A stretch of 64,000 nt of DNA from Lophium mytilinum (taxonomy: Eukaryota), in the NCBI GenBank assembly GCA_010093605.1, contig MU004198.1, positions 374,726 through 438,725 on the forward strand, written 5' to 3'. A program made the position numbers and the translations under genes. Positions within the stretch are counted from its first letter, which is position 1. Each line of letters starts with the position of its first letter. Below are positions 6,890-61,100 of this stretch, one piece after another. The notes below the pieces were generated by a model. The model had not been told where the DNA came from, did no database searches, and saw nothing but the letters and a program-made list of their open reading frames with translations.

Positions 6890-7808
6890 CTACCGCCGCC
6901 TTCCGCTATTATGCTCGTCCATCATACGGCGACCGTAATCCCCAGCTCCTCGTGTCGAGCGGTGGTTCGAATCGGACTCATGGCCAGCGCCAGCGCGAGA
7001 GTTCGAGGCGGCGCCGAGAAGGGAACGTCTAGGTTCAGACGTAGAGGGCGGTGCGGCGTGCCAGGGACGTCCAATCTGGATACTGTTAGCGACGGGGCGG
7101 GGCGACTGACCAACAGGGGCCGACTCTCTGAAGGAGAGGTGACGAGCCTGTTCTATCACAGATCCCCTAGCAGCGAGGGGTGAATGGGCTCGTGTGCCTT
7201 GGTGTGTGGCCGAGCTCCTAGTCTCCTCCATCGCATGTGTCAAGGCACCCGTACTCGCGGATGGATCTGGGGCAGCACCAAAGTGGTCTGCAAACGCAGC
7301 AAGAGTGCTCATAGCTGGAGAAACGCCAGACAGGCCTTCAACCACAGCAGGAGTAGCTAATGCTGGGGCAGCACCAAAGTGGTCTGCAACCGCAGCAGGA
7401 GTGCGCATAGCTGGGGAAAAGCCAGACAGGCCTTTAACAACAGCAGGAGTAGCTAATGCTGGGGCAATGCCGGAAAGGCTTGCATCCACAGCAAGAGTAG
7501 TCGAAGCTGGGAAGAGCTCTTCCCATAGTGCCCTGGCACGTGCCTCCTCGGATTCAGGATCAAGCGGAGCAAGAAGGTCACGCTCTTCTGCTGAAAAACC
7601 CAACGCTAGGGCAATGCCGAATTGGGCTGCATCCGCAGCAATGGTAAATGGCGCCTGGGACGGTGTCCCGGCAGCCGCGCGTGTTGGAAGACCAGGCGAC
7701 TTAGGTCGCTGTTTAGCTAAGTACCGGTTAGCAGATGCCTCTTTCTTCAGTTCCAGCCATAGAGTACTCGCCTTCGCTCACCGGTTGGCGTTTCCGTCGT
7801 CGCGCCAT
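6890..7808 (-). CDS. Orphan Ala/Pro-rich protein with an internal 32-aa duplication; possibly truncated
   Basis: ATG at 7808 (MARRRKRQP) is followed by a short intron with a GCTAAC branch point. Splicing joins it to the long frame containing ORF 6890-7603. A TATAAAAA lies on the minus strand near 8281-8288. Confidence 0.45.
7267..7466. repeat. 96-bp coding tandem repeat, about 2.1 copies
   Basis: CTGGGGCA starts recur at 7267, 7363 and 7459. The minus strand encodes APALATPAVV[K/E]GLSG[F/V]SPAM..ADHFGA twice. Confidence 0.9.
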
Positions 7809-8941: not shown

Positions 8942-11083
8942 ATGTCTGCTTTCGACATCACCAACGTCGACGAGGTCACCGGAACCGATCAGTCCAACAC
9001 CAACATCAACGAGGCTGCCGGAACCGCTCCGATCAAGGCAGCTCCCATCAAGCGCAAGAGGGCCAAGAAGGAGCCCAGCATGTTCTTGGAGGACCCGACG
9101 AGGAAGGTCCAGCCTAAGTCCGCGGCCAAAGTTCCTGATACCCCGACACTGGACACCTACGACCCCAACTACGTCCCTCCTCGCGTACCCATGAGCCACA
9201 TCAGCACCCCGATGACCGCTCGCAAGGACGTGTTCGTTGACCAGAACTTGGTCAGCTTGAATGTTGCCGGCCGCGCTGAGTTGGCCTCCACCCCCGCGGG
9301 TCGAAAGCAGCTTAAGGCGGAGGAGACTGGGAAGAAGCCCGCGAAGAAGCAGATCAGCAAGATAGAGAAGGTGATGAAGGATCCTTCCCAAGCGGCCCGG
9401 AACCAGGAGATCCAGGCACAGCGTGCTGCGAACGGTGCGGATCTGGTGGCTGCCCGGAAGGCGGATAGAGCAGCCAAGGAGGCTGCCAGAGCAGCCAAGG
9501 TGGCTCAAAGGAACGCAAGGGAGGCTCAAGAAGCTCTCCCGAGCCCCCCAAGCCCTCCTCAGAAGCTTTCGGCGGACAAAGCGGCTCTCGATGCGCTGTT
9601 TTTCGGCGATGATGAGCCCGAGGTTCCGGCCGAGAAGAAGGTGGTCCAGGAGCTACCCAAGCAGGAGGTGGCCAAGGAGTTGCCCAAGAAGAAGACAGCG
9701 CCGAAGAAGGAAGCGGACGAAGAGCCGCCAAAGAAGAAGTCAGCGCCTAAGAAGAAGGCGGAGGAACCAGAGGTCATCAATCTGGACACAGACGATGACG
9801 AGCCCAAGATGGCTGTTCATGACCAGCCAAAGAAGGCCATCAAGTCTCAGGCCAAGCCAGGTCCTTCCGACCCCACAAAGCATGCAGCTGGTATGGCCGA
9901 GTGGAACAAGAATAAAGAGAGGAGCTCGAAGTCCGCCCTCCCTCAGGCCGCGCTCCCAGGCTTCATTGCGCCTCGCAAGCGGACTGCACACGCTGCCGAG
10001 CTTGAGACGACCCTTGACGACGACGCGCCCAAGCAGCGGGCCCTTCACCCGATGAAGAAGCTGAAGCTGAAGGAGTCTGGCTCGGAGGAGCTGATGGAGG
10101 TCGAAGACACTTCCATGCTTGCCACGGAGCCTGAGAAGGTTCACCATGAGCCAGGTGCCCCTCTTCCAACACCTCCACGTGAGGCAGATCCTTTGTTTGA
10201 AGACGAAAGCGAGGAGGAGGACGAGGATGACGAGAAACCAGTCGAATTCAGCGGTCTGGTTATTGTAGATGAAGATGGCAACGAAATGGACCATCCCCTC
10301 GCCGTCGCCCCGGGCCCCTTCAATCCCCAACGTGAGGTCCCCTCCAAACCTCCACCGAAGAAGGAGCCCGCGAAGCGTACCTCTCTCAATACGGTCGCTG
10401 GAGGCCGCGTCACCAAGAGCACCACCCCGGCCAAAAAGGCAAAGGTCACGAAGGAAAAGGCCGCCCCCAAGCCAAAGGCCGCCCCCAAGCCAAAGGCCGC
10501 TCCAAAGCCTAAGGCTGCTCCCAAGCCGAAGGCCGCCCCAAAGACCACCAAGCGTGGCAAAAACGCCGCAGCTTCTGGACTACATTCCATCAAGGCCCTC
10601 TTTGCCATGAACAAGAAGGACCTCTTCTCTGAGCTCGCGGAAAGTGGCCTGGACATCAACCCCGAGGAGACTGAGCCGCTGCCCCCCATCCTAGCCCGCA
10701 AAGCCATTGAGGACGCCGAGAAGCTCGTCAAGTCCCTCAAGGACGACTATAATGATGAGATGGGGCCTCATTATGGACACGACGGGCAGAAGGCGGAGGA
10801 GGAGATTGAGGCCCGGGTCCAGCAGAGAGTGGAGAACGCGATAATGGCATACATCCGTTCAATGCACCCGGATGATGAGGCCGGTGATGCCCCAGCGGTG
10901 GCCCAATATCAGGCGTATAAGGAGAAGATGGAGGAGGAGCAGGAGCAGGAGGATGAGGACGAAGAGATGGTGAATGAAGAATATGGGGACCTTGAAGCAG
11001 AAATGACGGCAGCGCTCCAGGGTGATTACGAGGAACCCCCGCAGGCGATGAACGACGACTCCTCCGAATCCGAAGAGGAGTAG
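8942..11083 (+). CDS. Low-complexity Lys/Glu/Pro/Ala-rich protein (about 713 aa) with KAAPKP repeats and acidic tracts; probably nuclear
   Basis: Long intronless ORF with strong codon bias from ATG 8942 (MSAFDITNVD). It has an NLS-like IKRKRAKKE, five KAAPK(P) repeats and an E/D-rich tail. Confidence 0.8.
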   Translation: MSAFDITNVDEVTGTDQSNTNINEAAGTAPIKAAPIKRKRAKKEPSMFLEDPTRKVQPKSAAKVPDTPTLDTYDPNYVPPRVPMSHISTPMTARKDVFVDQNLVSLNVAGRAELASTPAGRKQLKAEETGKKPAKKQISKIEKVMKDPSQAARNQEIQAQRAANGADLVAARKADRAAKEAARAAKVAQRNAREAQEALPSPPSPPQKLSADKAALDALFFGDDEPEVPAEKKVVQELPKQEVAKELPKKKTAPKKEADEEPPKKKSAPKKKAEEPEVINLDTDDDEPKMAVHDQPKKAIKSQAKPGPSDPTKHAAGMAEWNKNKERSSKSALPQAALPGFIAPRKRTAHAAELETTLDDDAPKQRALHPMKKLKLKESGSEELMEVEDTSMLATEPEKVHHEPGAPLPTPPREADPLFEDESEEEDEDDEKPVEFSGLVIVDEDGNEMDHPLAVAPGPFNPQREVPSKPPPKKEPAKRTSLNTVAGGRVTKSTTPAKKAKVTKEKAAPKPKAAPKPKAAPKPKAAPKPKAAPKTTKRGKNAAASGLHSIKALFAMNKKDLFSELAESGLDINPEETEPLPPILARKAIEDAEKLVKSLKDDYNDEMGPHYGHDGQKAEEEIEARVQQRVENAIMAYIRSMHPDDEAGDAPAVAQYQAYKEKMEEEQEQEDEDEEMVNEEYGDLEAEMTAALQGDYEEPPQAMNDDSSESEEE
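10457..10543 (+). repeat. 18-bp coding minisatellite (KAAPKP x about 5)
   Basis: AAGGCCGCCCCCAAGCCA-like unit repeated with synonymous changes. Confidence 0.9.
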
Positions 11084-11387
11084 CCCTCTGGTTCTTCCTT
11101 TTCTTTACTTTTGTTATACTTTAAGCGAGTTTTGTTATATTGCGGGTCTTCTAGTGCCTAACAGCACTAGCTAAACTAAGGCTTCTTTTGTGTCTTTTAG
11201 AGGATTCCTTGTCTTTTCATAGGGTCGGTTGTTTGTACATTTGGTTCTGTCCCCTTGCGATATGTTTGCGAACTACCTCCGAAAGGGTAGAGTATGCTTT
11301 GTAGCTGCAGTAGCTAAGAATGGGAACTATATCTACATATACGGATCTCTTTGCTTGACATGATAAATTGGGCTGAAGCAATAGTGA

Positions 11388-12140
11388 TTTTGACAACCTA
11401 CTTACCCGCTTGATCCGCTCCGTGACATACCTAAAATCAAAAGCTCTGATGTAAAGCGCTTGCCACCGTAGATCAGACATGTAAAATTGTAACCCCGCAA
11501 ACCAGCCAGGTAAAAACTGAGCACTGGAAATCGGGATAATATCCTAGGGATTTTGGCAAACTATATGCACTATCCAACCTCCCTTTGCCATATCTACGGA
11601 GAATTTGTCGAATGTAAAGCTCTTAATACCGTAGATTAGACATATAAAATCCTGACCGCGCAAACCAGCCAGGTAAAAACCGAGCACTTTAACCCAGCTC
11701 AACTTCCTAAACCCCTTAGCAACCTACATAGGCTACCAAACCTCCCCGCACCATATCCTCAGATATTTTCTTGAATGTATAGATCTTGGCACCGTATATT
11801 AGACATGTGAAATCCTAACACCTTGAACTACCTAAGTAAAAACTAAGCACTTTAAATTAGCTTATCTTTCTAGGCCCTTTGATAACCTACGTAGACTACT
11901 AAACCTCCCTTCGCCATATCTATAAAGCTTTCTTCGGATGTAAAGCTTTGAAAACCGCAGATTAGATATGTAGAATCCTTGCCTCGCAAACCAGCCAGGT
12001 AGAAACCGAGCACTTTGAATTAGCTCGACCTCCCAAGCCTATTGATAACCTACATACAGTCTCAACCCTCCCTTCGCCATTTCCACAAGAAATCTCTCGA
12101 ATGTAAAGCTCCTGACCCCGCAGACCAGCTAAGTGAAATC
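11388..12140 (+). repeat. Degenerate 163-bp tandem array: 4 full units plus partial flanking units
   Basis: The ATGTA(A/T)AG anchor falls at 11449, 11612, 11775, 11938 and 12101, exactly 163 bp apart. Shared blocks include ACCGTAGATTAGACATGTAAAAT, CAAACCAGCCAGGTAAAAACCGAGCAC and AACCTCCCTTCGCCAT. Confidence 0.93.
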
Positions 12141-12250
12141 TTACCGATCAATAAAGCTTATGCGGCACGTTCAGCAAGGCAATAGCAAGATCATCACTAG
12201 CATCACATAATCTCTATAACCTATCTAATCCCCACCCATCCCCTACTACC

Positions 12251-14252
12251 TCACCACTTCCCAACCAACCCCGCAACCTCCCTCACCACCTCTGTACCCC
12301 CCTTCCTCCCCTCTGCCAACTTAACCTTTTCTACCGTCCCCTTCGCATCCATCGCCAAGCACAAATCCCGTACCTCCCCCTCCCGCCCCGCCCCAAACGC
12401 GATCCACCCCACACACACTACCCCCATATACCGCACCTCCTCCGCCTCGTCCGCAGGAGGCCTTCCCAGCACCTCCAACACCGACGCCAAAACTTCCACC
12501 TGCTCGCCCTCCGGCAGCTCCCCCACCCCGGCCTCCTGCCCTGCGGATAAAGCCGCCGTGCGCACTTTATGGTTCGCCCCCGCGAGATTCAGCGCCAGCG
12601 CCATCGCCGAGGCGCGCAGCGCGCCATGGTGCTCGTCCAGCAGCGCGGCAGTGAGGAGGGTAACGAGCAGCGACGACAGCGGAGGCGCGAGGAGGTGGGG
12701 CGTGAAGAGCGGGCTGGAGAAGAGGTTGCAGGCGAGGTGGATGGATGTGAGGCGGAGGTTGTAAGGGGCGGAAGGGCCGAGTGAGGCCACGTAGCTGAGG
12801 AGGTGGGTGATTGTGGTAGTAGAGCCCGTGGTTGAAGAGGCGGAATGCTCTTCGGCAAACCAGCCGGCGATGCGGGGGTCCGGGAGGGTTGTGCGCAGGA
12901 GGTCGAGGGCTGTGAAGAGGAGGTCTGGGGGGAGGGTTGTTGGGGCGGAGCGGAGGAAGGCGGCGAAGGCCGGGAGGGAGGGGAGGGGGGAGTCGATGGC
13001 GCCGGCGGCGGAGAGGGATTTGATGAAGGAGACTATGGAGGTGACGGCGGGGTCGTGGCCGGCGGGGCCCATTTTGGCAGTGAGTTTGTCGAGGGGTGGG
13101 ACTTTGGGGTAGGTGATTGGGCGGAGGGGGGTGTGGAGGAGCGTTGGGACGTTCTGGAGCAGATGCGGGTGGCGGGGAAATGCTTGGTCTAGGAGCATTG
13201 CTGCGTTAGCCCGTAGTCGACGTTCGTCTGCACCGCTCCATTCGTCTTGCTTTTGGCCGCGAAGGAAGGACGTGAAGGTCGGGGTTGCTCGGACACCGTA
13301 TTTCGATGCGACTTCGTACGCGTTGTTAATGTCGACTTTGATAAAGACGCCTTTGCTGCCGGCTTCTGCGGCGATTTCGTCGTATGCGGGATATACGATC
13401 TTGCAGGGCGCACAGGTAGAGCTCGTGAAGAAGATTATGGCGCATGATTTTGAGGCAGAATATAGGAGACTTTCGACTTCTTGGAGAGAGGTCACGTTAT
13501 GAACTTTGCCTTCTGTGCCATTGGACACCTTATGATATAACCCGGTTGGTGTGTTTCGTGGTAGGGCTGACTGCGGGGGAACGTTTCGTTGCGGTACGGG
13601 TGCTTGAGTAATAGATCTCATGGCGCTGTCCAGTTGTGGTTTGAGCATCTGTCCGAACGGGGTGTTCAGAACAGTCTGTGGAAGGGATGTGATATGGTCT
13701 GGTATGCCTCTGCCGACTAAGAACATGGCGAAGTCGTTGGAACTATGAAGTCGTCAAAGCCGAAACTTCGAGTCTATTGCTCAGTAAACTCACAAGTTGT
13801 TGCAGTTATGCAGGAATAAGTCGTAGGATTCCGGCGTATATATCTGCTTCAGCGAGTCCATGTACTCAAGTATGATTTCCATAGGTAGCGCCGTCTCCCC
13901 CAGTGGTATAACCTCCATCGGTGCTCCATGATGTGTTGTTCCGGGGTAGCATGTCTGTATGCCCTGGCCAAAGAAGTACTCAACGCCACCGAATACGAGT
14001 GCCGTGTGATAGACGGCGTCTAAGGTCTATTAGAGGTCGGCTTGATGGGTGGTAGATGAAGGTATGGTACCTATCTGGGTTCCGAGGAACTGGCGGGACA
14101 GCTATTTGACGTGTTTAGCTTGGCGTATTCGAAGGCCGGAAAATGTAGCATACCTGTCGCGCCAGGCCCTAGGATATTGTTAATTAGCTTTCAGGTGGCG
14201 GGGTTCATGACACTACCTTGGAAAGATCGTAGACGTAGAGCTGGACGTCCAT
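12251..14252 (-). CDS. PPPDE/DeSI-family peptidase fused to thioredoxin-like and PUL domains; 5 exons
   Basis: Exons are 14252-14217, 14168-14154, 14101-14071, 14019-13794 and 13742-12251. The spliced N-terminus reads [33 protein letters not shown]...[14 protein letters not shown] (PPPDE His and NCN motifs), followed by a CAPC thioredoxin motif and a PUL-like C-terminus. Confidence 0.9.
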
Positions 14253-22580: not shown

Positions 22581-22897
22581 ACTATATGAGACTTGACGGT
22601 TTGATCATTTCTATTTTCCTACTAGTTCATTCGGTCATGAGTGTGCAGGTGCTATCTTTGCACTCCTATGACCTTGTATCCTCGCTGGTGAACGAATCGT
22701 AACTTATCTACACTTACCCTAGCGTCCTCGTGGGTGCACGGGGCAACTTGCCAAAGTGGCTGGCTGACATGTGAAATCAACATCACTAAGGGTATATAAG
22801 GCTATTTGTTTTCCAGATACCTCAATCTTGGGTGGGTCTACCTGTGCTGCTCTCGTACGCCGTCAACACCTTTGATTACACAAACCAAATAACCCAC

Positions 22898-22977
22898 AAA
22901 AATCTCTCAGCTGTTGCTTGGATTTGAACTAGACTTGGGGCCCTAGTTCGAATCCGAGTGACAGCTGAGAGGTTTTT
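22898..22977 (+). repeat. 35-bp inverted repeat with a 10-nt loop, a B-box-like GTTCGAATCC and a T5 tail
   Basis: Arms 22898-22932 and 22943-22977 pair at all 35 positions on the + strand RNA: 30 Watson-Crick and 5 G-U. Confidence 0.88.
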
Positions 22978-23639
22978 GCTTTTTGCACTCTTTTTGTGCT
23001 TCTCTTATTCACCTTCTTGGACACAACATATATGTACCGTTTCTTTAAAGATCCAATTTGCAGCAAGATTTGTATGAGCCAGGAAACCATTGATAGGCGC
23101 TTGCCTATGTGATAGTAGGAGAAGGCAAGGTTCATTCCGGCGTCACGGCACTATACAGGGCGGAGGGTTCTTACGGAGCACTGAGGCTCAAGGTCTAACT
23201 ACATCTTAGGGCCTACTTCCCTTTTAAAAGACCGGCGTCGACCCATGCCTCTCTGCATGTGACTTGATTCATTTTGGCCTGTCCGTGGAAAGCGAAGCTA
23301 TGAGGAAGCTGGGCTTGATAGCGGCGAAGCCGGGAGATATTGCGAGGTTCTTGTCTGCTGCTTCGGCTGCACTAAACTTGTTTTCTGTTAACAGCCCAAC
23401 CGTGACTGGGCAAAGAGTCGAACTTAGAAGGATCTCCGTTGTTGGTAAAAACTTGAAGAGAGGGAAGCCATCTGTGTTGGGAAAAATCTTTTTTAAGGGT
23501 GGCTGTGGGATCAAGTATGGTACCTGACGTAAGTGAACCAGAGAGAGGTCAAGACCCACGAACTCATCTATGGTTCTTTGAGACGAGGATACCTTATAAT
23601 ACCCGCGGTTGAACATTACACAGCCCTAACATCCTTAGT

Positions 23640-38555: not shown

Positions 38556-40640
38556 ATGTACGCTCAATCCGTAAGTCGAGTCACTCGCCCTGGTCACGCT
38601 CCCGTTTCGTGGCAGAATTATCGCATGGATGATGGCTCCTATTCGTCCGAATATGAGGGCAACTTCAGAACTACGTACCCATTGCGGCCTCGGATTGGAA
38701 GAAACCGCGCCTTTTATCCCGATGCTCCGTATCCTGGAATTCATGCGCAACCATTCTTACACCATCCTACTGTGATGTCTCGACCTAAGGGACCTCCCCC
38801 GCCTCTTGAGGATCCCGATCTGGAGTACAAGTTCAATCCGAAGTGGAATATCGACTATGCTACCGTATTTCTTATCAATCGACTAGGAAAAGACAAAGAT
38901 CTAGCCAATGGAATAAGCAAGATACGCGAGAAATCCCGGCGATACGATACGCGAGAAATTCCATACCGATCCTTCGACGCTCTCAACGACGTCTTGTTCG
39001 CAGGTCGACTGAAAGATGCCGTCTACCTCAAATGGGTAGACCTCGGCCCTCATGTCTCTGGCACCACGTGCAATCCCGGAGAAGGACCTGACCATCGTGT
39101 CTCCCGGAGTACTCTTCTCCTGAATTTCACGTTGCACCAAGACGCCCATCCCGATGATATCTTAGCCTCATTGATACATCACATGATCCACTGCTACTTC
39201 ATCGTCACCTGCGGCCCCCAGCTCCCTGATGAAACAAAGTATGGTCGTCTCTCACACGGAATGCACTTCGGCAAGGTCATGTCTACTATTAAAGACCTCT
39301 CTGCCTCCACAGGTCGTCGGCCTCTCCTTGTCGACATTGGTCACAACCTCGCACAAGTCAGAGACTACCAGTATGAGAGACCCACTCCAGCCTTATCTCC
39401 CCGCAACCTCTCCCTCCTTCGTTCCCAAATGGAACCACGCAACCAACGCTCTTCTACCCGCAGTTTCTGCCCTCCTCACCCAAAGGTCAACCGGCCTAGT
39501 CAAGCAGAAGTGGATGAGTGGTACACGAAGACATGCATTCCGCTCCCTGACCTCCCCAAGTGCGTCCGTGGACAGAATCTTTACACGCTCGTTCTCCCCG
39601 GCTCTGACTTCCGCGAGTTTCCACGCGCAAAAGCACCGCCGAACCAGGAGTATGTTGAGCTCATCTACGCAGATAAATGCGTGTATATCCCTGCTACCTC
39701 CATCTCCAGCTACCCGAGCCTGGTAGCACAATTCGAGAAAGCAAGATGGCTCGAGATACCGGACGAAACCTCCCTAGAAAGCTTCAAAACCCTCTACGAA
39801 TTCCTACTCCGCGGTAGATTCAGCCCCGACCAGCCATCCGACCACGAGCACGGCAACCACCATACCCCCAGCCCCCCTCTCATCCGCTCCCCCTCCGCAA
39901 CCGCCGACCCCTACCTCACCACCTCCATCAAAGCCCTCAAACTCGCCACATCCCTCAAGTTCCCCCAGCTCGAAGCCCACGCCCTCCACCGCCTCAACGC
40001 CCTCCCCCACACCCACGAAGACCCCTTCACCCTCCTCTCCGAAATCTACACCGACTCCCCTGACCCCCTCCCGGCCCTCCGCGCCTGGGCCCGCGCTTTC
40101 CTGCTTCGCCGCGCGCCCGATCACCCCGTTATGGCCTACCTCGACCTCGCCACCGACGCCGGCGCCGCTCCTGCGAACCTCGAGCTGCTGGAGCGCGACC
40201 GCGGCTTGCGGGAGCGGTTTGACTACCTCCTCGAGCACGGCGGCGCGTTCCACGCCGACGTCACGGCCGCGCGGACGGCGCTGGAGCGGGACCGCGAGCG
40301 CGACGTGTTCTCCTGGCAGGGCGGGCGTGTGCATCCGCATTTGTTTGAGGTCCCGATCCCGCCACCCCCACCGCGGATGATGGATGATTGGGACCTCCCG
40401 CCTCCACCGCCGCCGCCGCCGCCGCCGATGTTTGAGGGGTTTGAGGGGAGGGGGTTCCCGCATCCGGATTTTGCGTGCTCGGCGACGGCGCTGGGGAGGG
40501 AGAGGGAGGCGAGGTTGGGGGTGTTGGGGTGGGGGCCGGTGGAGAGGGAGGGGGAGGGGTGGTGGAGGAGGCGGAATGGGATGACGGGGCAGGTGGCTGG
40601 GAGGAGGGGGGAGGGGGAGTGGGTTTTGAGGGGGGGTTGA
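38556..40640 (+). CDS. SprT-like metalloprotease-fold protein with a downstream BTB-like region and Pro-rich tail
   Basis: FDALNDVLFAGRL..VYLKW; HHMIHCY in place of HExxH; downstream HGMHF. The later segment FKTLYEFLLRG..ALKLATSLKFPQL is BTB-like. The start codon is uncertain. Confidence 0.7.
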   Translation: MYAQSVSRVTRPGHAPVSWQNYRMDDGSYSSEYEGNFRTTYPLRPRIGRNRAFYPDAPYPGIHAQPFLHHPTVMSRPKGPPPPLEDPDLEYKFNPKWNIDYATVFLINRLGKDKDLANGISKIREKSRRYDTREIPYRSFDALNDVLFAGRLKDAVYLKWVDLGPHVSGTTCNPGEGPDHRVSRSTLLLNFTLHQDAHPDDILASLIHHMIHCYFIVTCGPQLPDETKYGRLSHGMHFGKVMSTIKDLSASTGRRPLLVDIGHNLAQVRDYQYERPTPALSPRNLSLLRSQMEPRNQRSSTRSFCPPHPKVNRPSQAEVDEWYTKTCIPLPDLPKCVRGQNLYTLVLPGSDFREFPRAKAPPNQEYVELIYADKCVYIPATSISSYPSLVAQFEKARWLEIPDETSLESFKTLYEFLLRGRFSPDQPSDHEHGNHHTPSPPLIRSPSATADPYLTTSIKALKLATSLKFPQLEAHALHRLNALPHTHEDPFTLLSEIYTDSPDPLPALRAWARAFLLRRAPDHPVMAYLDLATDAGAAPANLELLERDRGLRERFDYLLEHGGAFHADVTAARTALERDRERDVFSWQGGRVHPHLFEVPIPPPPPRMMDDWDLPPPPPPPPPPMFEGFEGRGFPHPDFACSATALGREREARLGVLGWGPVEREGEGWWRRRNGMTGQVAGRRGEGEWVLRGG

Positions 40641-40859
40641 GGTGGATGGTTTTGGGGTGGTAGGGGGTGTAGGGGACGGATCAAAGAGATAGACGATAGG
40701 GGCGGGATTGCGGTGTTGGCGGTCGAGGATGGCTGAGTGGGGTGTTTTACGGTATGTAGATTTCATGTGGGTGATTTACGGTGGCGCGGTCTTGGTGTTG
40801 AGTAACGTGTTCTGGTGATTCGGGCGACGGGTGGTTTGGTGGGTTAAAGAGGTTGTCGG

Positions 40860-41335
40860 AAAAGGAGTGATGGGCGAACTGATTTGAAGAGCTGGATTTG
40901 GACATGTCTGACGCGCGCTGTAGGAAATTCAGTGACTGAATATAGTATTAAGGAAGTCGAGTCAATAAGGGTGCTCTTATAGGAGGCGGAAGTCAAAACG
41001 ATAGAAAAGCGAGCTGATTCGAATGGTCGAGATTTTACATAGCTGCTCTGCAGTGTCAGGAGTTTTACATCCGAGAAAATCTGTGTAGATTTGGCGAAGG
41101 GAGGTGTGGTAGTCAATATGTTAAGAGCTTTACAGAAACTTTTTGGGGACAGCGCGAAGGGAGGTTTGATTATTCATATAAGCTGTTAAAGGGCTTAAGA
41201 AGATAAGATAATTTAAAGTGCTTAATTTTCATATTACTATTTTGCGCGGTTAGGATTTTACATGCTTGATCTACGGTGTCAAGGGCGTTACATTTGGGAA
41301 AATCCCTACACCTATGGCAGAGGAGGGTTGGTTGG
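40860..41335 (-). repeat. Second, inverted and more decayed array of the 163-bp family
   Basis: The reverse complement reads CAACCTCCCTCTGCCAT..ATGTAACGCCCTTGACACCGTAGATCAAGCATGTAAAATCCTAACCGCGCAAA..AAGCACTTTAAATTA..AAACCTCCCTTCGC. Anchors are at 41293, 41135 and 41070. The left boundary is approximate. Confidence 0.88.
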
Positions 41336-41630
41336 GAAGTGGTGAGGTGGGAGGGGATGGGTGGGGATTAGATGGTTGATTGATCGATTGATTATTACTC
41401 GCAGATTCTATTTTAAGGAACGTGGAGGCTGTTCTTGTATGTAATTAATAGCCAGCCCACTAGACAAGTGTAGGTCTACATGTGCCTCATGGGCAAAAGT
41501 CGGGTATCCAAAGAACCGAACCCATATAACCCCTCTCTATGTTTCCTCACCGCCACCCCCAAACCCCCATCCATCTCTCCAACCTCCCCACCGGGCTCCC
41601 CTCGGCCTCCAACCCCCTCCCCGTATCACG

Positions 41631-43809
41631 TCAAACCGTATAGCTCCTCTCCACCAACGCCCTCCCCCTCCTAATCCCCCTGCGCCCCTCCCGCCTCTTC
41701 TTACTCTTCCGAATCGCCCTCTTCTGCACCACCCGCTGTATAACCCTCCACAACATGCTGCGCATCAATATAATAATCGTCGCCGCCATGACCGGAATCG
41801 CAATCGTCCAAAAGAACTTATCCGAATGCTGCTGAACGCCCGGGAACGTCGCGAAATTCTGCCCGAAGTAGCCTACCAGAAATGTGAGGGGCAGGAAGAA
41901 GATGGTGACAACGGTGAGCTGCTTCATGCTCTCGTTCTGGAAGGAGCCGACCATGTTGAAGATGAGGTCGATCATGTTGTCGGCGGCGCGGCGCATTTGG
42001 TCGAGCGAGGCGGTGATGGTGATGCAGTGGTCTTCGACGTCGCCGAGGTAGGTGTGGGCGAGGGGGGAGATGGTGATGCTGGAGATTTGGATGCGGGAGG
42101 GGCGCCCTGAGAGGCCAGGGCGGCCGGAGAGGCCGGTGAGGCCCGGGGTGGACATGGGCTCGGATTTGTGGTCGCGGAGGGAGTTGATGAGGGAGCTGAT
42201 GGGTTGGATGGAGCTGCGGAGGATGGAGAGCTCGGAGGTGAGGATGTCTGGGGACGTTGGTGTTAGTTTTATGGGTGTATGAAGAGTGTATTGGTGATGA
42301 CTGGGATCGCGTTTTGAAATGATAGGATTTGAACGTACACAAAGATCGCGAATGGCCGATGTCAGGGTCGGTCAGGACCTCTAGCTCCAGCTCGCTCATG
42401 GCATCTTCATAGGCTGCAACGACAGGAATGGCCAGATCGATAATGGCATCTATGATGGCTTGGACGAGCATGCTACCGTCACAACTCTGTCTGATGATCG
42501 TGTCTGAAGAGCCGAGACGCTTCAGGATTGGCTTCTCGATATCTTCTGCGGAGTGCTCGAAGAAGGAGATGACGGTATTGTCCGAAGTTATGAACATGGA
42601 CACCTGCTCTACGCTGACTGCTAGCTTCTTCTTGGCCAAGGTCGAGTTGCGCTCCATGTAGATGGTCCTCTCGATGTTTGGTCCGCCACGGTAACGCTGT
42701 AGAGTCCGAATCTGTTCCTTGCGTTGGACACTCGACTGCAGGCTCCGAGCAGTGACGGTTCCATCAAGCGTGAAGCTCTTGTCTTCTGTCTGCCACGTGT
42801 GCTCCATGTCGGCGCTAGTGGGAGTTGGACTCAAGAAATCTCGACACTTCTTGTAGAATGACTTCGTCTTCTTGGTCTTCTTGTGCTTGTGTTTTCTGGC
42901 AGGGCCGAAGTCTTGGTCCGAGTCGCTGTCCGAGTCGTCGTCTGTGAGTTTGACGAGCTTCTGTAGGGTCAATAGCACTTGTTCAGTTAGTATGATACAT
43001 TCTGATTGACTAGATGAAACAAGATAGATGCAAGATGCAAAAACAGCAAACAAGTAAAACATAGGTTGTATTGTACATGAGTTTCGATGGATATGGTTAT
43101 ATTTAGGGGTTTGTTTAGGACCCGTGTAGCCCAGGATTGGAAGGATGAAGAGATGAGCATCACATGGAGCAAACGTCACGTGACTGCTTAATGACACCAA
43201 ATTGCGTATCTTGGCACGAGTAATAGATTTTGACTTACTGAAAGCCTGGTCAGAGTACCAGTCAGCCTTTGTGCGGCCCCTAGTATTCATCAAGTCTTCA
43301 ATGGCTAGCCGATGTAGATTTTTGTGGTTTCCCAGCATCCTGATGACGTCCCAGCTGAGACCATTGACATTGATCCACCGGCATTGGACCCATTCCTCCT
43401 TGGGCATGTCGAGAAACACGGCCAAGTCGTCATTGTCTAGGCGGCTCTGCATGATCTTCTCGTCGGAGAAGTCTACAACTGTGATGTCGCAGTGCTGCTG
43501 GAGCAGCTCGAAATGCGGCTGGGCTTCCTGGGCAGTGTCTACACCCGGCTCGGCACCTGGCTCCTCCCATGTTGGCCGTGTGGGCGAGTGGTAGTTTCGC
43601 ACGGTATTGGAACGCGTCATACGCCGCTTCATGGGAGAGTCGACGGAGAATCGAGGGCTGTGGTGGCCGGTGGCCGACAGGTTGGCCGACAGGGCTGAGA
43701 CAGCACTGTGCCGGCGGCCGCGATGCGTCTCTCCATCGGTCTCGGGGATTGTGATGGTAGGGCCTCGCGGGCGGGTCTGGAAGTCCCTGACGTTGGTGGA
43801 GTCCGACAT
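41631..43809 (-). CDS. CorA-family divalent cation (Mg2+) transporter
   Basis: Motifs [37 protein letters not shown] and [25 protein letters not shown], with 2 C-terminal TMs. Introns 42978-43238 and 42248-42338. Confidence 0.9.
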
Positions 43810-46991: not shown

Positions 46992-48131
46992 GCGGTATCC
47001 TTTGTCCGGCATCTCAGCACATCCCCACGACGAACACTTTTATTTACGCGGCATACTGCACGGCGCGAAGCAAATTTCCGATACTCAGATTTTATGAACC
47101 GCAACGACGACCGAATACCTCCTATACGCGAATGGATTGGCGAAATCTATCTTGGAGTTGGAGCACGATACGCTCTGGGGGATATAACCCCGCTTTCCTC
47201 ACATACCCATACCACATTGTTATCCAGGGCGATGAGCCATTCTTATCCTTTTCTCCTCTTCCGCATGTTTGGGAGGAGGCCTCTGAACGTTGCTCTTTAG
47301 CGTCTCCGCATTGCGAATTGAGAAACCGCTCTGTGATTTTCGTTTCCTAGTGCTCTGGTCGTGGTGCAAAAGGCGTTTTTCTCTATTCTTCATATCCGGG
47401 AGCATCAGTCGTCATCTTCCTTCTCCGTTCCTAATTGCATGCGAGGTGCGTGGTTGGTGGCTCGGTGTAACTCCCGTTCTTCTCTTTGTTCGCACTCTCA
47501 CGCCCTCCCTGTGTTGGAGCAGGCTTAATGGCACGGTTCGTCCCGGTGCGCTGGGTCAATGCGAATACACAATCGGGGAAAAGCCCGTGGACAATGCTTT
47601 CTTTGTGTCTCCCGTTCGCGATGGTTAATTCGGGGATTGGGGATCATTGGATGGGACTGGACCTCGTTGGCGAAGAACTGGCTATATAGGATGCGTACCT
47701 AGGGCTGGAGAATGACAATGCTTAATTTCTGATCAACGTCGTTGCCAGGGTCGATTTGTGCCCCACTAGTTTCGTGTTGTTGCCCATCATACGCGGCGGG
47801 GCGGCCTTTCATCGCGCCGCTCGGAGCGTGCAGATTGGATAGCTCGTAGTTTGCACCGGGTCTAATCAAGCTCGGCACTGCTTTATCGTGTGGCATGAAA
47901 GAAGTACTCGATATTCTACAGCCGCCAAGCTTGAAGTTACGGTACAGCCAATCAACGAGCACGGCTTACCTCGAAGCATACGCAGTTACGGGAAAGCCGG
48001 CTGGAAGTAGTGACCCACAAACGATACGGTCAATGGATTGAGAAATTGGTGTACGAATGTCAGGGTCGCGCAGGCATGATTTAGAACTTCCAATGATTAG
48101 AACATAATTAAAGGATTGCTTTTACTTTCTA

Positions 48132-51100
48132 CAGCCTTGACCAAAATTAGAGGCCGCCCTAAATTTAAAAAACGTATTTTTAAATATAGATTTCGGGCCG
48201 CCACGTAATCTCCGTAAATAGGCTATTCCTGTAGTAGTAATTAGCCTGTTTTTCAGGGGATTAAGTGCCCGGCCGTAATTACTATAGCAATATAAAGTTT
48301 ATATTATCTTATACTTGCATAGAGAGGGCTAAGAAAGCTTATACTTATCTATTTACTACTTTTTAATAATAGCCTTCTTTCTAAATTACTAGAAACCTTA
48401 ATATAACGCTGTAATATTATTAAATAACCTAGAGTTAGCCTCTATTTCTTATCGCCCGCCTAATTTACTGTTATTATTAAATTTTAACGAATCTTAATAG
48501 CTTCTAAGTATAGCCTTATTTAATTTCTATTCTTAGCCAATTAATAGCCTAACGTGGCTGCCCCCTTTAACCCAGCTTAACTACACTAATACGGAAGCGG
48601 CTAAGCTACTTAGCGGCCTATTAATTAATAAGATTATAGGCGGAGTACTAGCGGAAGAGGCGCCTCTTAGAGGGCTATTACTACCGCCTATAGATAACTA
48701 TAGCCCTAAAATTAGCTGTAATTTTAAAGAGAATAGCTAGGCGTTTAAGAACTAGAGGGCCCCTAGAGGGGGCTACAGCCGCCTACCTACGCTGTTATTA
48801 TTAGCTAGATCTGCCTCTTAAACGGCCTCTTAAATAGCCTCTTAAATAGCCTTAACTGCCTTACCTCTATATTATATATTACGGGCGCCTATAGAGTATA
48901 GTAATAGTAATAATACCCTAAAAAAGCTAATTCTCTGCTAGTAGGGGCGCTAATAGAAGGTCTATAGGCCGCCGCGTAGCTGTATATTTACTATATATAA
49001 TATACTATTAGTAATTAAGGTAAAGGTAGGTAAGCAGGTAGTAAGAATCTTACTAGAGAATACCTTTAAGAAATAAGGCGTTCTATACGCGGTGCTCTAG
49101 GTAAAGATTATCTACCTAAAAGTGCAGGCTACTCTTTATATATATAACCCGGCGGGTAACTAGATATTAGCCCCGCCTATTAAAATAAAGTTTAATACTA
49201 TATAGTACAGCGTAAAGCTTTTAAAGCTCTTAATTAATCTAGAGAAGAAAAAGGACTGCTAACGCTTTAATAAGAAGGTAATTAATTAGGTAGGCTACAT
49301 TAATAACGCTAACATGTAGAAGCTATTAATAATTAAGATAGAACTATTCTATACTAATTAGGGCAGCGCCGGCGGAATAGGCGGCCCGGCGTTAAATTCT
49401 ATAGTAGCTTAGTTAGCTAGAGCTCTACCTGCTTAATTAGTACTAGTTAATAAGGCTACTAGTAGTGCATAGCTCTTCTAGACAGCTCTTATAAGGCAGT
49501 AGAGGTGTAGCAATTAAACCTATATATAGTTATTAAGCTAGTACTTTTAAATAGATAGTATATACGTTAGAATTCTTATAGGTAATCTTATAAGCTAGAC
49601 TATAGTAAGAGGAGAGAATAGTATTAATATAGAGACGCCTCCACGGGTAATAATAAAGGTATTCTAGAAGTAATAAGATAATAGGCAATTAAGGCCTAAA
49701 TTAATGCTAGCTCTAGCAACGCTAGCAGCGCCTATACTAGTTATTGTAGTCCTTAATAATTAGGTAGTTAGTAGCCGCCGCCGCAGGCGTAGCTTAAGCT
49801 TAGAATCTAGGTCGCTATTAAGAAGGAGAAAGAGATTAAAGAGGGTACTAACTAAGCTGCTATTATTACCGCCGCTACGTATTTAATATGTAAATAGAGT
49901 TAAGAATTGCGTCTAGAATATAGAGGAGTACTTTAATAGCCTTAAGGCGAGTATATAGAATAATTCTAAGTAGGTAGAGAAGTTCTAGGTAGCTTAAAAG
50001 GCTCTCTAGAAGTAGCGGATAACCCTAGATTATATCCGCAAAAATAAGGCGGCGGTAAGGGCTATTATAATAGATATAGGCGTTTCTAATATATTAATTA
50101 GTAACGTAATTAAAGGAGTTAAGTAGTAGAAAAAGGAGAGGATAGAGGTGTTAGTAGAGGAGGAAGAAATGTAGAATAAGCTATAGGCACAAGAGAGAGG
50201 TAAATTAAGCTTATTTAAACAGGCAAAAATAGTTATATATAAAGGAGAAATGCTATATAAAACTATAGTATATTTACTTACTATTTCTATATATAAAATA
50301 TATGCTATTTTATATATATATTCTCTTTTTATATACTATATTTATACTTGCTATTAAATAGGAAGTCTATATACAGCCTTTCTATTTAGCTTAGCCCTTA
50401 TTTAAGCTAATTAGAGGCCGTATATTAGCTTAGCAAGCACGCTAATAGCTATTAGCGCAATAGTAAGTATATACGTAGACTTACTATATAACTACAGTCT
50501 ATACCTCTATTAATTTTCTAGGCTATAGTTACTTAGCTCTAGGCAGCAGCCGTTTAAGCTAATTAGAGGCTGTAGTCTAGCGTAGAGGCAGAATAGACTT
50601 AAAAGGAGTAAGAATAAGGTACACGCTAATATAATAAGCGAGCTAATTAGCTGCTAGTATATTTTAATTTACCTGCACTTCTAGAAATTAATAGTAAACG
50701 CTAGAGAGAATAACCTTCTACTAACTATAACCTCCTCTATATTCTCCTCTATGTTCTTAAATGTAACTACTATATTTAAAATAGCCTCTTACCTAAGCCC
50801 TATTACTACCTACTACCCCTATATAATACTCTAGGAACTATTTAAAGCTATACTTAAAGTACTTAGAGTAGCCTATCTAAGCCAGCCAGCTATAATATAT
50901 AAAGCTCTTTAGCTTACTAAAAAACTCCTTAATTAGGTTTAAATCTAGTAAATATAGTAGTAGGTATACTAAAATAACGCCTGCCTCTCTAAATAAAGCT
51001 TCTATCTAATTAGAGTAGTAGAAGCTCGCATTATCTATAACTACTACTAATTTTAGCGCAGGAAATTAACTATACGCTGGAAGAAGGTAGTTCCGGATCT

Positions 51101-52035
51101 AGTACTTATAGTTCTTATTATTTATAGCTCCTTTATATACTAATAAGATAAGAACGCTATTAATAGTATAGGCTAGTAGTATATTAAGCCGCGTCTCTTC
51201 TTAATTATATAGTACTCTCTACACCGGCGCAACACCTATAGAAGACTATCTAAACTTCCTTATACTAGTCTTTAAGTTAGCATCTAATTTATTAATAAAT
51301 ATAAGCTAATTAGTCTAGAACTATAAGATCCACGCTATATATATATTACGTGCCTTATAGCTATATTTAAGGGCGTAATGGCAGTACTAGGTATATTAGT
51401 ATAGGCTTTATCTACTAGGCAGTATACTTACTATCTTTCTATTCTAACCGGCCAGCCTTAACTCTCTTATAATAGATAAGCGAGAAATAATAGTACTAAA
51501 CTTATTATATAGTAGCTACTATATCTTATCTATATATAGTATTAGCTTTTTAGTAAGCTATACTAGTAAATAGATAACTATTACTATAGTAAGGCTGCGC
51601 CGTCTTCCTACTTAATTAGAAGGCGCGTAGATAGTGCCCTAGGCCCTCTACTACCTTATTAACTTTCTTGCGGTCCTCTAGCAGTAATTAAGCTTATAGC
51701 TAAGCTTATAAAAGGTAATTCCGCCCTTAATTAGTATATTAGCGGCGTTATAGGTGTATTTACTTAGGCGGGCAGGCATAGTAGTAAAGAAAATAAGAAG
51801 CTATTACAAGAAATCCGTGTAGAAAAGGAGGAAGAGAGAATGCAGCAGATGGGATAGAAGGGCTCGGCGAAATCCAGTTTATTTGTTGTTGTTGTTATCC
51901 ACTTAATCCCCTGAAAAACAGGCTAATTACTACTACAGGAATAGCCTATTTGCGGAGATTACGTGGCGGCCCGAAATCTATATTTAAAAATACGTTTTTC
52001 GAATTTAGGGCGGCCTCTGATTTCGGTCAAGGCTG
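48132..52035 (-). mobile_element. RIP-inactivated Tc1/mariner (IS630-like) DNA transposon, 3904 bp
   Basis: 136-bp TIRs (48132-48267 and 51900-52035) begin CAGCCTTGACC and are flanked by TA on both sides. The interior is AT/TpA-rich and has no long ORFs. Confidence 0.95.
50750..51779 (-). pseudogene. RIP-degraded DDE transposase (DDE_3/IS630-Tc1 type)
   Basis: ATG at 51779 (MPARLS..). The relic VVVIDNASFYYS..AGVILVYLLLYLLDLNLIKEFFSKLKA corresponds to VVMDNASFH..LPPYSPDLNPIEEFFS after C>T/G>A changes. The 3' boundary is approximate. Confidence 0.85.
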
Positions 52036-52406
52036 TATATGCTCTATAATACGAATCGGTATAATCTCCGACTTATCGTCTATCCAGGCTTTGGTGGGGA
52101 ACTGGGCGTTACGTCAGGTGCTTAAAATAGTGTATATGCAGGGGTCGAGGGACCACTTCGTGGCTTGGAAAGAAGACGCAGCAGCTCGAGTCGGATCGCC
52201 CTTATTACTTCCCTATCATCAACCACGGGGCTGGAATCCTGTCGTACCACAGCCGGCTCTCCATGCCTGCGTCCTAGTCGTTTCCCGAACCATAAAACTC
52301 GTTGAGTATGCAGAATGTCCCGCCTTGACATGAAGACTTGGGACGAGAGACTGACTATACATTCTCGTAGGGCAAACTTCCCCCCACATAGGCATGCGAT
52401 GCGACA

Positions 52407-59620: not shown

Positions 59621-60054
59621 ACCGGTCGTGGTAGAGACTGGTGGATATAGGCGGTGGACATCTCTTACCTACGCTAAATCCTCCTCCACAGCGTGAAATG
59701 AAAAGAGCAAGATACAGTACTAGCCCACAAGACTGGGGTCACTGGTATACCACAGCTTGAGGGCCATTTTGGAAGCTAGGCATCACTGTCAAAGGCGGCA
59801 CCGATGCTTGAAAATCGGCAGTCAAGAGGCTGCTTAGACTCCAAGGTATGAGATTCGGCATCACGCGTAGGTTTTTGTGGCACCACTGGAGCACCTCAGG
59901 CAGTGGGAAACGAAGGTGCAAAGACCTGTTGTCGGTCACCTGAATCTAACCCTTATGACAAAAGCGTTCAAAAAGAGACTGTAAATCAGGTCAACGAATT
60001 CTTGATTCCTAAGCGGCCGCTGGAGTGTCTCTGTGGGAAGCTTAGTTGCTTTTG

Positions 60055-61100
60055 TCACTTAAAGTTACAGATCGAACCGAGTAAACCGAACTTTGATAGA
60101 CGTGGTGTGCACGCGGCGTAGTTACAAGTTGGCTAATATGGACCACAGAAGCAGCAGACGTAAATAAGGTCGTCGTTCAGAGGATGTTTAAACCCTGCTG
60201 AGGCACCTCTGTTAGGAATTAGCGCAGTGTAGTTGCTTAAAGTCACAATTCGAACCGCGTGAAAGGAATTCTGGTAAGATGCGGAGGGCTCGTTGGAGAG
60301 AGAGGCCAGATTAGAGCGACGGAAAAAGGATTACGAAAAACGGAGGAAGCGCCTTTCCGAAGATTCTGAGCCGATTGGTTACTAAAATTCACATATCTAA
60401 CTGCGTACAAAAAGATTTTTAGACGCGGAGGGTACATCGCGTGGCAGATATAGTTGTGGTTTTACCCCTTGATAGATAGATATAAATTAGGCTGATGGAA
60501 TTAGGATCGCAAAAGACAGTGGAAACACCTCCATGGAGGATCTGAACAGATTGGTTACTAAAAGTCACATATTGAACCGCGTGAAAAAAAACTTTTTACT
60601 TTTTGATGGAGGGGCGTAAGTTAGGCTGGCGGAAATAGGATGGCGAAAAACGGCGGAAGCACCTCTATGAAGGACCTAAGCAGATTAGTTACTAAAAGTC
60701 ACATATCGAACCAAGTACACCGATTTTTGGTAGACGATGCGTGGACGCGGCGTGCCGTAGCCTAGTCTCTACCAAGGAGGCATGAATCAGCCCGCGGGGA
60801 AGGGGATATCGGAAACGTTCCTGGTTTCCCCTCTGCGCCAGTTCTACACTTTTTTGTTGCAACTTTTCACGAATCTGACCGCGCGAATCGAAAAATCAGT
60901 GACGCAGCGTATACGCAAAGACCACGAAAAGGGCTGCGCTGCGAGCAAAGGGCTATTAATTAGACTATTGTCAAAAGGATAATGAACACAAGACGAGGTA
61001 CCCCTGTTAAGAGTTTGTGGCCTTTTATTGCAAGTGTTAACGAATCTAACCACGCGAATCAATTTTTGGTAGACGTGGAGGGCACGCGGCGTGCACCTGG
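60055..61100 (+). repeat. Degenerate tandem array, about 7 units of 134-178 bp
   Basis: The core GATTGGTTACTAAAAGTCACATATCGAACCGCGT..TTTTGGTAGACG has anchors near 60073, 60251, 60397, 60573, 60707, 60875 and 61046. Confidence 0.85.

Follow-up and report, generated by a model that had tools for sequence, protein, structure and literature searches.

A 163-bp tandem array between convergent genes of Lophium mytilinum and its irregular relative 29 kb away

The 163-bp array and its closest described systems

The closest described systems for the present locus are the fungal minisatellites and other low-copy intergenic tandem repeats, the satellites with a monomer of nucleosome length (the 171-bp alpha satellite and the 150-180-bp plant satellites), the tandem repeats derived from transposons, such as the internal arrays of miniature inverted-repeat transposable elements (MITEs) and Helitrons, and the ascomycete duplications diverged by repeat-induced point mutation (RIP). 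The locus is a tandem array of 163-bp units in the wood-dwelling fungus Lophium mytilinum, located between two convergent genes in a 64-kb stretch of contig MU004198.1 (positions 374,726 to 438,725 of the forward strand, assembly GCA_010093605.1), which is referred to here as the window and by whose numbering all positions are given. Our analysis favors, with moderate confidence, the view that this array (locus 1) is a lineage-specific, low-copy and essentially neutral tandem repeat of the minisatellite or small-satellite kind, and that a second locus of the same unit family (locus 2) is partly copied and decayed.

Like the fungal minisatellites, the array is head-to-tail and non-coding, has few copies at one intergenic locus and decays by point mutation. 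Unlike them, it has a long unit (163 bp) and a related second locus, and its copies are old and strongly diverged (~70% identical) instead of being homogenized. It shares with the nucleosome-length satellites the monomer length, the tandem layout and a length that is kept within the array, but it comprises ~5 units instead of thousands, is placed in gene-rich DNA between two genes, and exhibits neither homogenization nor a higher-order repeat nor a 10-bp periodicity of WW (A or T) dinucleotides, while the monomer length is lost at locus 2. As in transposon-derived repeats, there is a dispersed pair of loci, and a host-gene fragment lies alongside the repeat; in contrast to them, the repeat shows no terminal inverted repeats (TIRs) or common termini, no parent element was seen in the window, and the order of the parts is permuted. 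The array also resembles RIP-diverged duplications in having diverged by substitutions without insertions or deletions (indels), in a genome that is RIPed elsewhere (a transposon at 48-52 kb), whereas its substitutions and dinucleotide indices, given below, are not of that kind.

The array at locus 1 is a real, in-phase 163-bp tandem repeat. Tandem Repeats Finder (TRF) called 11449-12111 with a period of 163, 4.1 copies, 70% matches, 0% indels and a score of 575, and the array is the only one of period 163 in the window at a TRF score of at least 60. The ungapped self-identity of 11388-12140 is 0.68 at lags of 163 and 326, over a background of ~0.3, and the next-best lags (297, 134, 192, and 29) do not exceed 0.355. 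The anchor ATGTA[A/T]AG returns at 11449, 11612, 11775, 11938, and 12101, a step of exactly 163 bp. The four full units give a gap-free MAFFT alignment, with a pairwise identity of 0.67-0.75 in all pairs, and a hidden Markov model (HMM) of the unit matches the array with E-values of 1e-45 to 1e-49. The copies are thus head-to-tail, in a number and at an identity above chance. Within the unit there is a weak sub-repeat of ~29 bp, seen at lag 29 and its complements (0.34-0.355). The array contains no homopolymer of 6 nucleotides (nt) or more and no microsatellite. With all unit pairs about equally distant and an identity at lag 326 that does not exceed the one at lag 163, the array has neither a higher-order repeat nor recent homogenization.

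The divergence of the units is substitutional. Counted against the majority consensus of five units, the 130 changes comprise 44 transversions, 40 changes of the C>T or G>A type and 46 of the T>C or A>G type. The TpA/ApT and (CpA+TpG)/(ApC+GpT) indices of the array are 1.15 and 1.08, near neutral, whereas the AT-rich transposon (48130-52037) has values of 1.86 and 0.37. Given the ordinary substitution spectrum and the near-neutral indices, RIP is ruled out as the source of the indel-free divergence. Among the four full units, 76 of the 163 columns are invariant, while uniform star-like decay predicts an estimated ~77. The first 78 unit positions carry 0.49 minimal changes per site and the rest 0.82 (permutation P = 0.017, or 0.054 when the ungapped unit of locus 2, unit A, is included); the rate heterogeneity along the unit is at most mild.

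An earlier description made from the letters alone (the sequence-only reading) had reported five anchors spaced 163 bp apart with no net indel, units of about 65-80% identity, sub-repeats of about 30 bp, a position in the gap between two convergent 3' ends and the lack of the RIP texture of the nearby transposon. The anchors, the TRF call and the alignment bear out the strict phase, and the full-unit pairs narrow the identity to 67-75%. The sub-repeat is present, although weak, the array does lie between stop codons at 11083 (+ strand) and 12251-12253 (- strand), and the indices agree with the absence of RIP.

The second locus and its relation to the array

Locus 2 lies 29 kb from locus 1, in the opposite orientation and also between convergent genes. 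Its parts, which are listed in Table 1, are irregular. The unit starts, read from nhmmer coordinates, are spaced by ~158, 65, 106, and 166 bp, ~80 unrelated bases separate units C and D, and ~450 aligned positions contain three small indels, in addition to the junction events. No 163-bp period was detected at locus 2 by TRF. Because the spacings vary in this way and small indels are present, the 163-bp length is not a property of the unit family, in a comparison of two loci that both lie within the window. Searching the 64 kb with nhmmer --max revealed no unit copies beyond these two loci; the weakest extra hits had E = 3.9-7.4, and the best hit in a shuffled control had E = 0.21.

The two loci share more than the units. 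A 59-nt stretch at the end of the neighboring gene of locus 1, which encodes a PPPDE/thioredoxin/PUL protein, spans the final six codons (GLVGKW) with their stop codon and 38 nt of 3' untranslated region (UTR), and it has an ungapped match of 89.8% at locus 2, also recovered by blastn as 54 nt at 94%. There it is positioned directly upstream of the units and in their orientation. The product of the PPPDE/thioredoxin/PUL open reading frame (ORF) is 100% identical to a 599-amino-acid (aa) Lophium mytilinum protein, whose nearest relative is from Mytilinidion resinicola (81%); both species belong to the Mytilinidiales (Dothideomycetes). The Mytilinidion homolog keeps the C-terminus as GLVGLW. Together with the identity of the gene end, this indicates that the 59-nt stretch is native to locus 1 and was therefore copied to locus 2. 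Furthermore, unit C of locus 2 is identical to u5, the truncated last unit of the array, at 35 of 41 positions, whereas the remaining unit heads share 27-30 of 41 with it. As u5 is only 68-71% identical to its neighboring units, u5 and C correspond to each other, and the copying from locus 1 therefore postdates the divergence of the units. The order of the parts is different at the two loci, with units, spacer and 59-mer at locus 1, and the 59-mer followed by the units at locus 2. Sensitive blastn revealed no significant shared flanks beyond the units and the 59-mer (best flank E = 4.3). Judged from these matches, locus 2 would be partly a patchwork copied from locus 1.

In the 59-nt piece itself, the + strand at locus 1 is C-rich and the complement has four G-runs (GGG, GGGG, GGG, GGGG), from which a G-quadruplex could form in the 3' UTR of the PPPDE/thioredoxin/PUL transcript. 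The possibility that the unit is a derivative of the end of this neighboring gene was considered and ruled out, with no unit HMM signal past unit position 48 in 12149-12600.

Beyond the window, the family appears small. In the contigs of two probable source DNA runs (~45 Mb each), one other contig per run touches the array, and its loose ends show it to be locus 2; the comparison was made at 80% identity or more, a threshold that misses copies with the divergence found among the units. Two conserved unit motifs with a variable gap gave 0 matches in metagenome contigs. At 80 metagenome loci that carry relatives of the flanking gene (40-67% identity, 523 kb), the unit was not detected (best E = 6.7), and tandem repeats of 150-180 bp were also missing, the only arrays with a period of at least 60 bp being of 65 and 76 bp. 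Since these relatives are distant, the absence at the 80 loci does not date the array. None of the listed papers on Lophium mytilinum deals with repeats, judged by titles and opening abstract lines, none of those on satellite DNA in filamentous fungi is relevant by title, and the 163-bp repeat was not found in print within this literature.

Proposed origin and rival explanations

In the origin that we favor, a 163-bp unit, partly built from ~29-bp sub-repeats, would have been amplified to ~five copies, probably by slippage or unequal exchange. The copies then diverged independently through point mutation to ~70% identity and without homogenization, as is directly evident from the star-like identity matrix and the ordinary substitution spectrum. 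Homopolymers and microsatellites are where most small indels arise, and the perfect phase would reflect a low input of small indels, chance and ascertainment rather than selection on length. Locus 2 would be an older decayed array, of which unit D remains, that received pieces copied from locus 1, including the 59-nt gene end. The permuted order and the internal junctions at locus 2 suggest that this occurred by ectopic gene conversion or by templated break repair with template switches, which is the probable route, and a circular intermediate is an alternative one. No sequence-specific function is expected for the array beyond that of 3' spacer or 3' UTR DNA.

The minimal number of changes is 108 among the four full units and 130 with unit A added, and for 108-130 substitutions the Poisson probability of 0 indels is 0.07, 0.02, 0.0015, and <1e-5 at indel:substitution ratios of 0.02, 0.03, 0.05, and 0.1, respectively. 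A yardstick from the window itself, taken inside the alignable repeat segments of locus 2 and of a 69-nt repeat family, suggests ~0.02-0.04 small indels per substitution. In a Neurospora crassa mutation accumulation study, 1077 point mutations and 231 indels are reported, and 88 of 96 one-bp indels were in homopolymers (PMC10234303). The 69-nt family is a second non-coding repeat family, located at 60051-61092 (+ strand), with seven copies of a ~69-nt motif that start at 60051, 60229, 60375, 60551, 60685, 60853, and 61024. Its spacings are 178, 146, 176, 134, 168, and 171 bp, its seven copies contain at least two 1-nt indels, and it may represent either a decayed repeat or an array of promoter-region motifs.

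Several observations weigh against the neutral account. The absence of indels beside 108-130 substitutions is nominally unlikely at ratios of 0.03 and 0.05, and unit A of locus 2 is also gap-free over 160 nt. By our own count, locus 1 has 0 indels against ~7 events in a comparable length of locus 2, for which our arithmetic gives ~0.004 under equal rates, and some of these ~7 events may have come from the copying itself. Conservation is somewhat higher in the first half of the unit than in the rest. The low copy number is seen only at an identity of at least 80%, and more diverged copies are possible elsewhere. Each locus has its units in the spacer of a convergent gene pair, where they begin ~250-300 bp past the stop codon of a gene whose sense orientation they share, a placement that would not be required of a purely neutral relic and that with n = 2 may be a coincidence. 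Because the array was picked after the fact, having been noticed for being in phase, the strict phase at locus 1 is mildly unusual but not compelling.

Among the other explanations, the one given most weight, although we regard it as unlikely, is that both loci are relics of a non-autonomous mobile element, such as a MITE, a Helitron-like element or another one with internal tandem repeats, which inserted at both and took up the gene fragment by Helitron-like capture. Regions between 3' ends are tolerant of insertions, and a pair of homologous loci 29 kb apart in opposite orientation, with a gene-end fragment accompanying the units and a truncated terminal unit common to both (u5 and C), is consistent with such an element. 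However, no TIRs were found around locus 1, where the inverted repeats have 12-nt arms only and are at chance level, and the two loci have neither a terminus nor a flank in common beyond the units and the 59-mer. The permuted order of the 59-mer and the units is not the product of a cut-and-paste or rolling-circle copy, no further copy was found at 80% identity or more in the ~45 Mb of probable source contigs, and the units are dissimilar to the TIR transposon of the window itself (48130-52037). A cis-acting 3'-end element is very unlikely. It would be a fail-safe array for polyadenylation or termination, or a protein-binding block in the 3' UTR, in which motifs of the UGUA or AUGUAAA type are active. 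UGUA is known as a polyadenylation-factor motif in filamentous fungi, every unit has the ATGTAAAG anchor, which is conserved, together with a second motif (ATGTA/ATGTG), and the placement of the units past a stop codon is sense to the + strand ORF at locus 1 and to a CorA-like gene at locus 2; but the second motif varies among the units, and the placement itself is known from these two loci, where chance may account for it. Less likely still are small non-coding RNA genes in a cluster, for instance C/D-box small nucleolar RNAs (snoRNAs) with one per unit, a reading that is close to refuted. At 11435-11524, Rfam gives a weak match to GlsR5, a C/D-box family, with UGAUGU and CUGA as its boxes (E = 0.0086-0.019 for small search spaces), but its 23 bits are far under the gathering score of 100. 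The boxes are not kept across the units, as the C-like box occurs at the u0/u1 junction only and the D-box CUGA in one of the four full units, with CCGA, CUAA, and CCGA in the others. No Rfam family reached its gathering score in the whole window. Consensus folds of five units had weak energies with penalizing covariation terms on both strands (+0.56 and +2.32 kcal/mol). The better fold had 83.7% paired cells, while shuffles averaged 83.1% and 169 of 500 reached the observed value, and its covariation score was equaled in 204 of 500 shuffles. A structured RNA on either strand is thus rejected, there being no covariation support beyond shuffles. A transfer RNA (tRNA) or short interspersed nuclear element origin is likewise ruled out, as no tRNA was found.

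The sequence-only reading had taken the array for a case in which length rather than sequence is conserved, and had proposed a nucleosome-positioning, insulator or terminator-type element or an undescribed dispersed family. In such a length-constrained chromatin element, each unit would hold one nucleosome or act as an insulator, and selection would remove indels while the sequence drifts. Equally, the array could be a spacer kept in register by selection, phasing nucleosomes or serving as a fail-safe terminator between the convergent genes, with locus 2 as a dead copy. The 163-bp unit falls in the range of fungal nucleosome repeat lengths, there are 0 indels in ~784 bp at a pairwise divergence of ~30%, and both loci are between convergent genes; their common placement behind a stop codon, in the sense of that gene, is the one pattern that leaves some weight to the functional readings. 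Against this, unit length varies freely at locus 2, an outcome that the sequence-only reading had itself named as contrary to its proposal, so that conservation of length finds no support across the two loci. A-tracts had been described roughly every 10 bp, and this did not hold. In the 9.8-10.8 bp band, 10% of shuffles (P = 0.10) and 7% of the 162 tiles of the window equaled the WW power of the array, whose strongest WW periods are 14.8 and 12.5 bp, and the AA/TT periodicity that was to be checked is not significant at ~10 bp (P = 0.13 against shuffles); SS dinucleotides gave a nominal, uncorrected P of 0.016. Moreover, the 80 related loci have no comparable array behind the orthologous gene, the family is not abundant at 80% identity or more in the ~45 Mb of probable source contigs, and selection would need an implausible efficacy to hold the length of five units at a single locus. 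The chromatin element, and with it the spacer kept in register, is therefore highly improbable in our estimation. The proposed dispersed family survives in a minimal sense, as a second homologous locus does exist 29 kb away but two loci only are seen, in the window and, at 80% identity or more, in the probable source contigs.

Gene setting, other repeats and significance

The features of both loci are collected in Table 1. At locus 2, 248 bp separate the stop codon of the CorA-like gene from the 59-nt copy, after which come the units, in the same sense as this gene.

Table 1. Positions in the window of the array, of its relative at locus 2 and of the adjoining genes.
Feature	Position	Strand	Remarks
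ORF, 713 aa, no Pfam family	8942..11083	+	Stop codon 282 bp ahead of the array
163-bp tandem array (locus 1), ~4.8 units	11365..12148	+	TRF, lag-163 identity profile, unit HMM, anchors
Partial unit u0 (unit positions ~80-163)	11365-11448	+	
Full unit u1	11449-11611	+	
Full unit u2	11612-11774	+	
Full unit u3	11775-11937	+	
Full unit u4	11938-12100	+	
Partial unit u5 (unit positions 1-48)	12101-12148	+	
Non-repeat spacer, array to end of - strand gene	12149..12212	+	AATAAA at 12150-12155 (+ strand)
59-nt gene-end piece of PPPDE/thioredoxin/PUL gene	12213..12271	-	Duplicated at 41383-41325
C-terminal ORF of PPPDE/thioredoxin/PUL protein	12251..13726	-	Pfam PUL 2.6e-39, Thioredoxin 1.1e-14; stop 12251-12253
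ORF with SprT-like domain, ends just before locus 2	38556..40640	+	
Second locus of the unit family (locus 2), irregular	40743..41383	-	nhmmer, blastn, sequence inspection
Doubtful unit E, not significant	40743-40786	-	E = 0.15-1.7
Decayed unit D (unit positions 34-141)	40823-40931	-	Two indels, E = 7.6e-5
Unit C (unit positions 1-59)	41012-41070	-	
Unit B (unit positions 3-16 joined to 115-163)	41071-41133	-	~98 bp lost internally
Unit A (unit positions 1-160)	41134-41293	-	Ungapped, 76% identical to locus-1 consensus
Unit tail (unit positions 125-158)	41299-41331	-	One deletion
Copy of the 59-nt gene-end piece	41325-41383	-	Ungapped 59-nt match
Last coding ORF of CorA-like Mg2+ transporter gene	41631..42155	-	Pfam CorA 1.8e-21

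The surroundings of locus 1 are partly covered by contigs of run X3, a run of uncertain kind that is guessed to be RNA. Three stretches are represented by contigs identical to the window, namely 10500-11220, 11876-12216 (341 nt at a word depth of 5.3), and the sequence from 12404 onward (at a depth of 133), whereas 11221-11875 and 12217-12403 are covered by no X3 contig. The kind of the run being uncertain, these contigs settle neither the expression, nor the 3' ends, nor the silence of the array. Within the + strand ORF that precedes the array, an 18-bp repeat with 4.9 copies at 87% identity is present at 10456-10543 and is in frame, with six codons per unit.

Other repeats occur in the window. 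The AT-rich block at 48130-52037, with a GC content of 0.31-0.37, is bounded by 138-bp TIRs of 96% identity (48130-48267 and 52037-51900) and is probably a RIP-inactivated DNA transposon. A tandem repeat at 7267-7511 has a period of 96 bp (sub-period 48 bp) and 2.1-2.4 copies at 86-93% identity. In addition, the self-comparison of the window revealed a palindromic self-match of ~82 nt at 22897-22978, with 76.7% identity and 8 gaps.

If the array is an ordinary neutral repeat, it would be of little importance by itself and could serve at most as a strain marker, and the pair of loci would be a small example of patchwork copying between repeat loci that carries along a fragment of a neighboring gene. 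If many arrays with a tight 163-bp period were present between convergent genes, they would show selection acting on the length of DNA in a fungal genome, which is rarely seen, and a length constraint of this kind would provide a natural system for the study of nucleosome phasing or of transcription termination between convergent genes.

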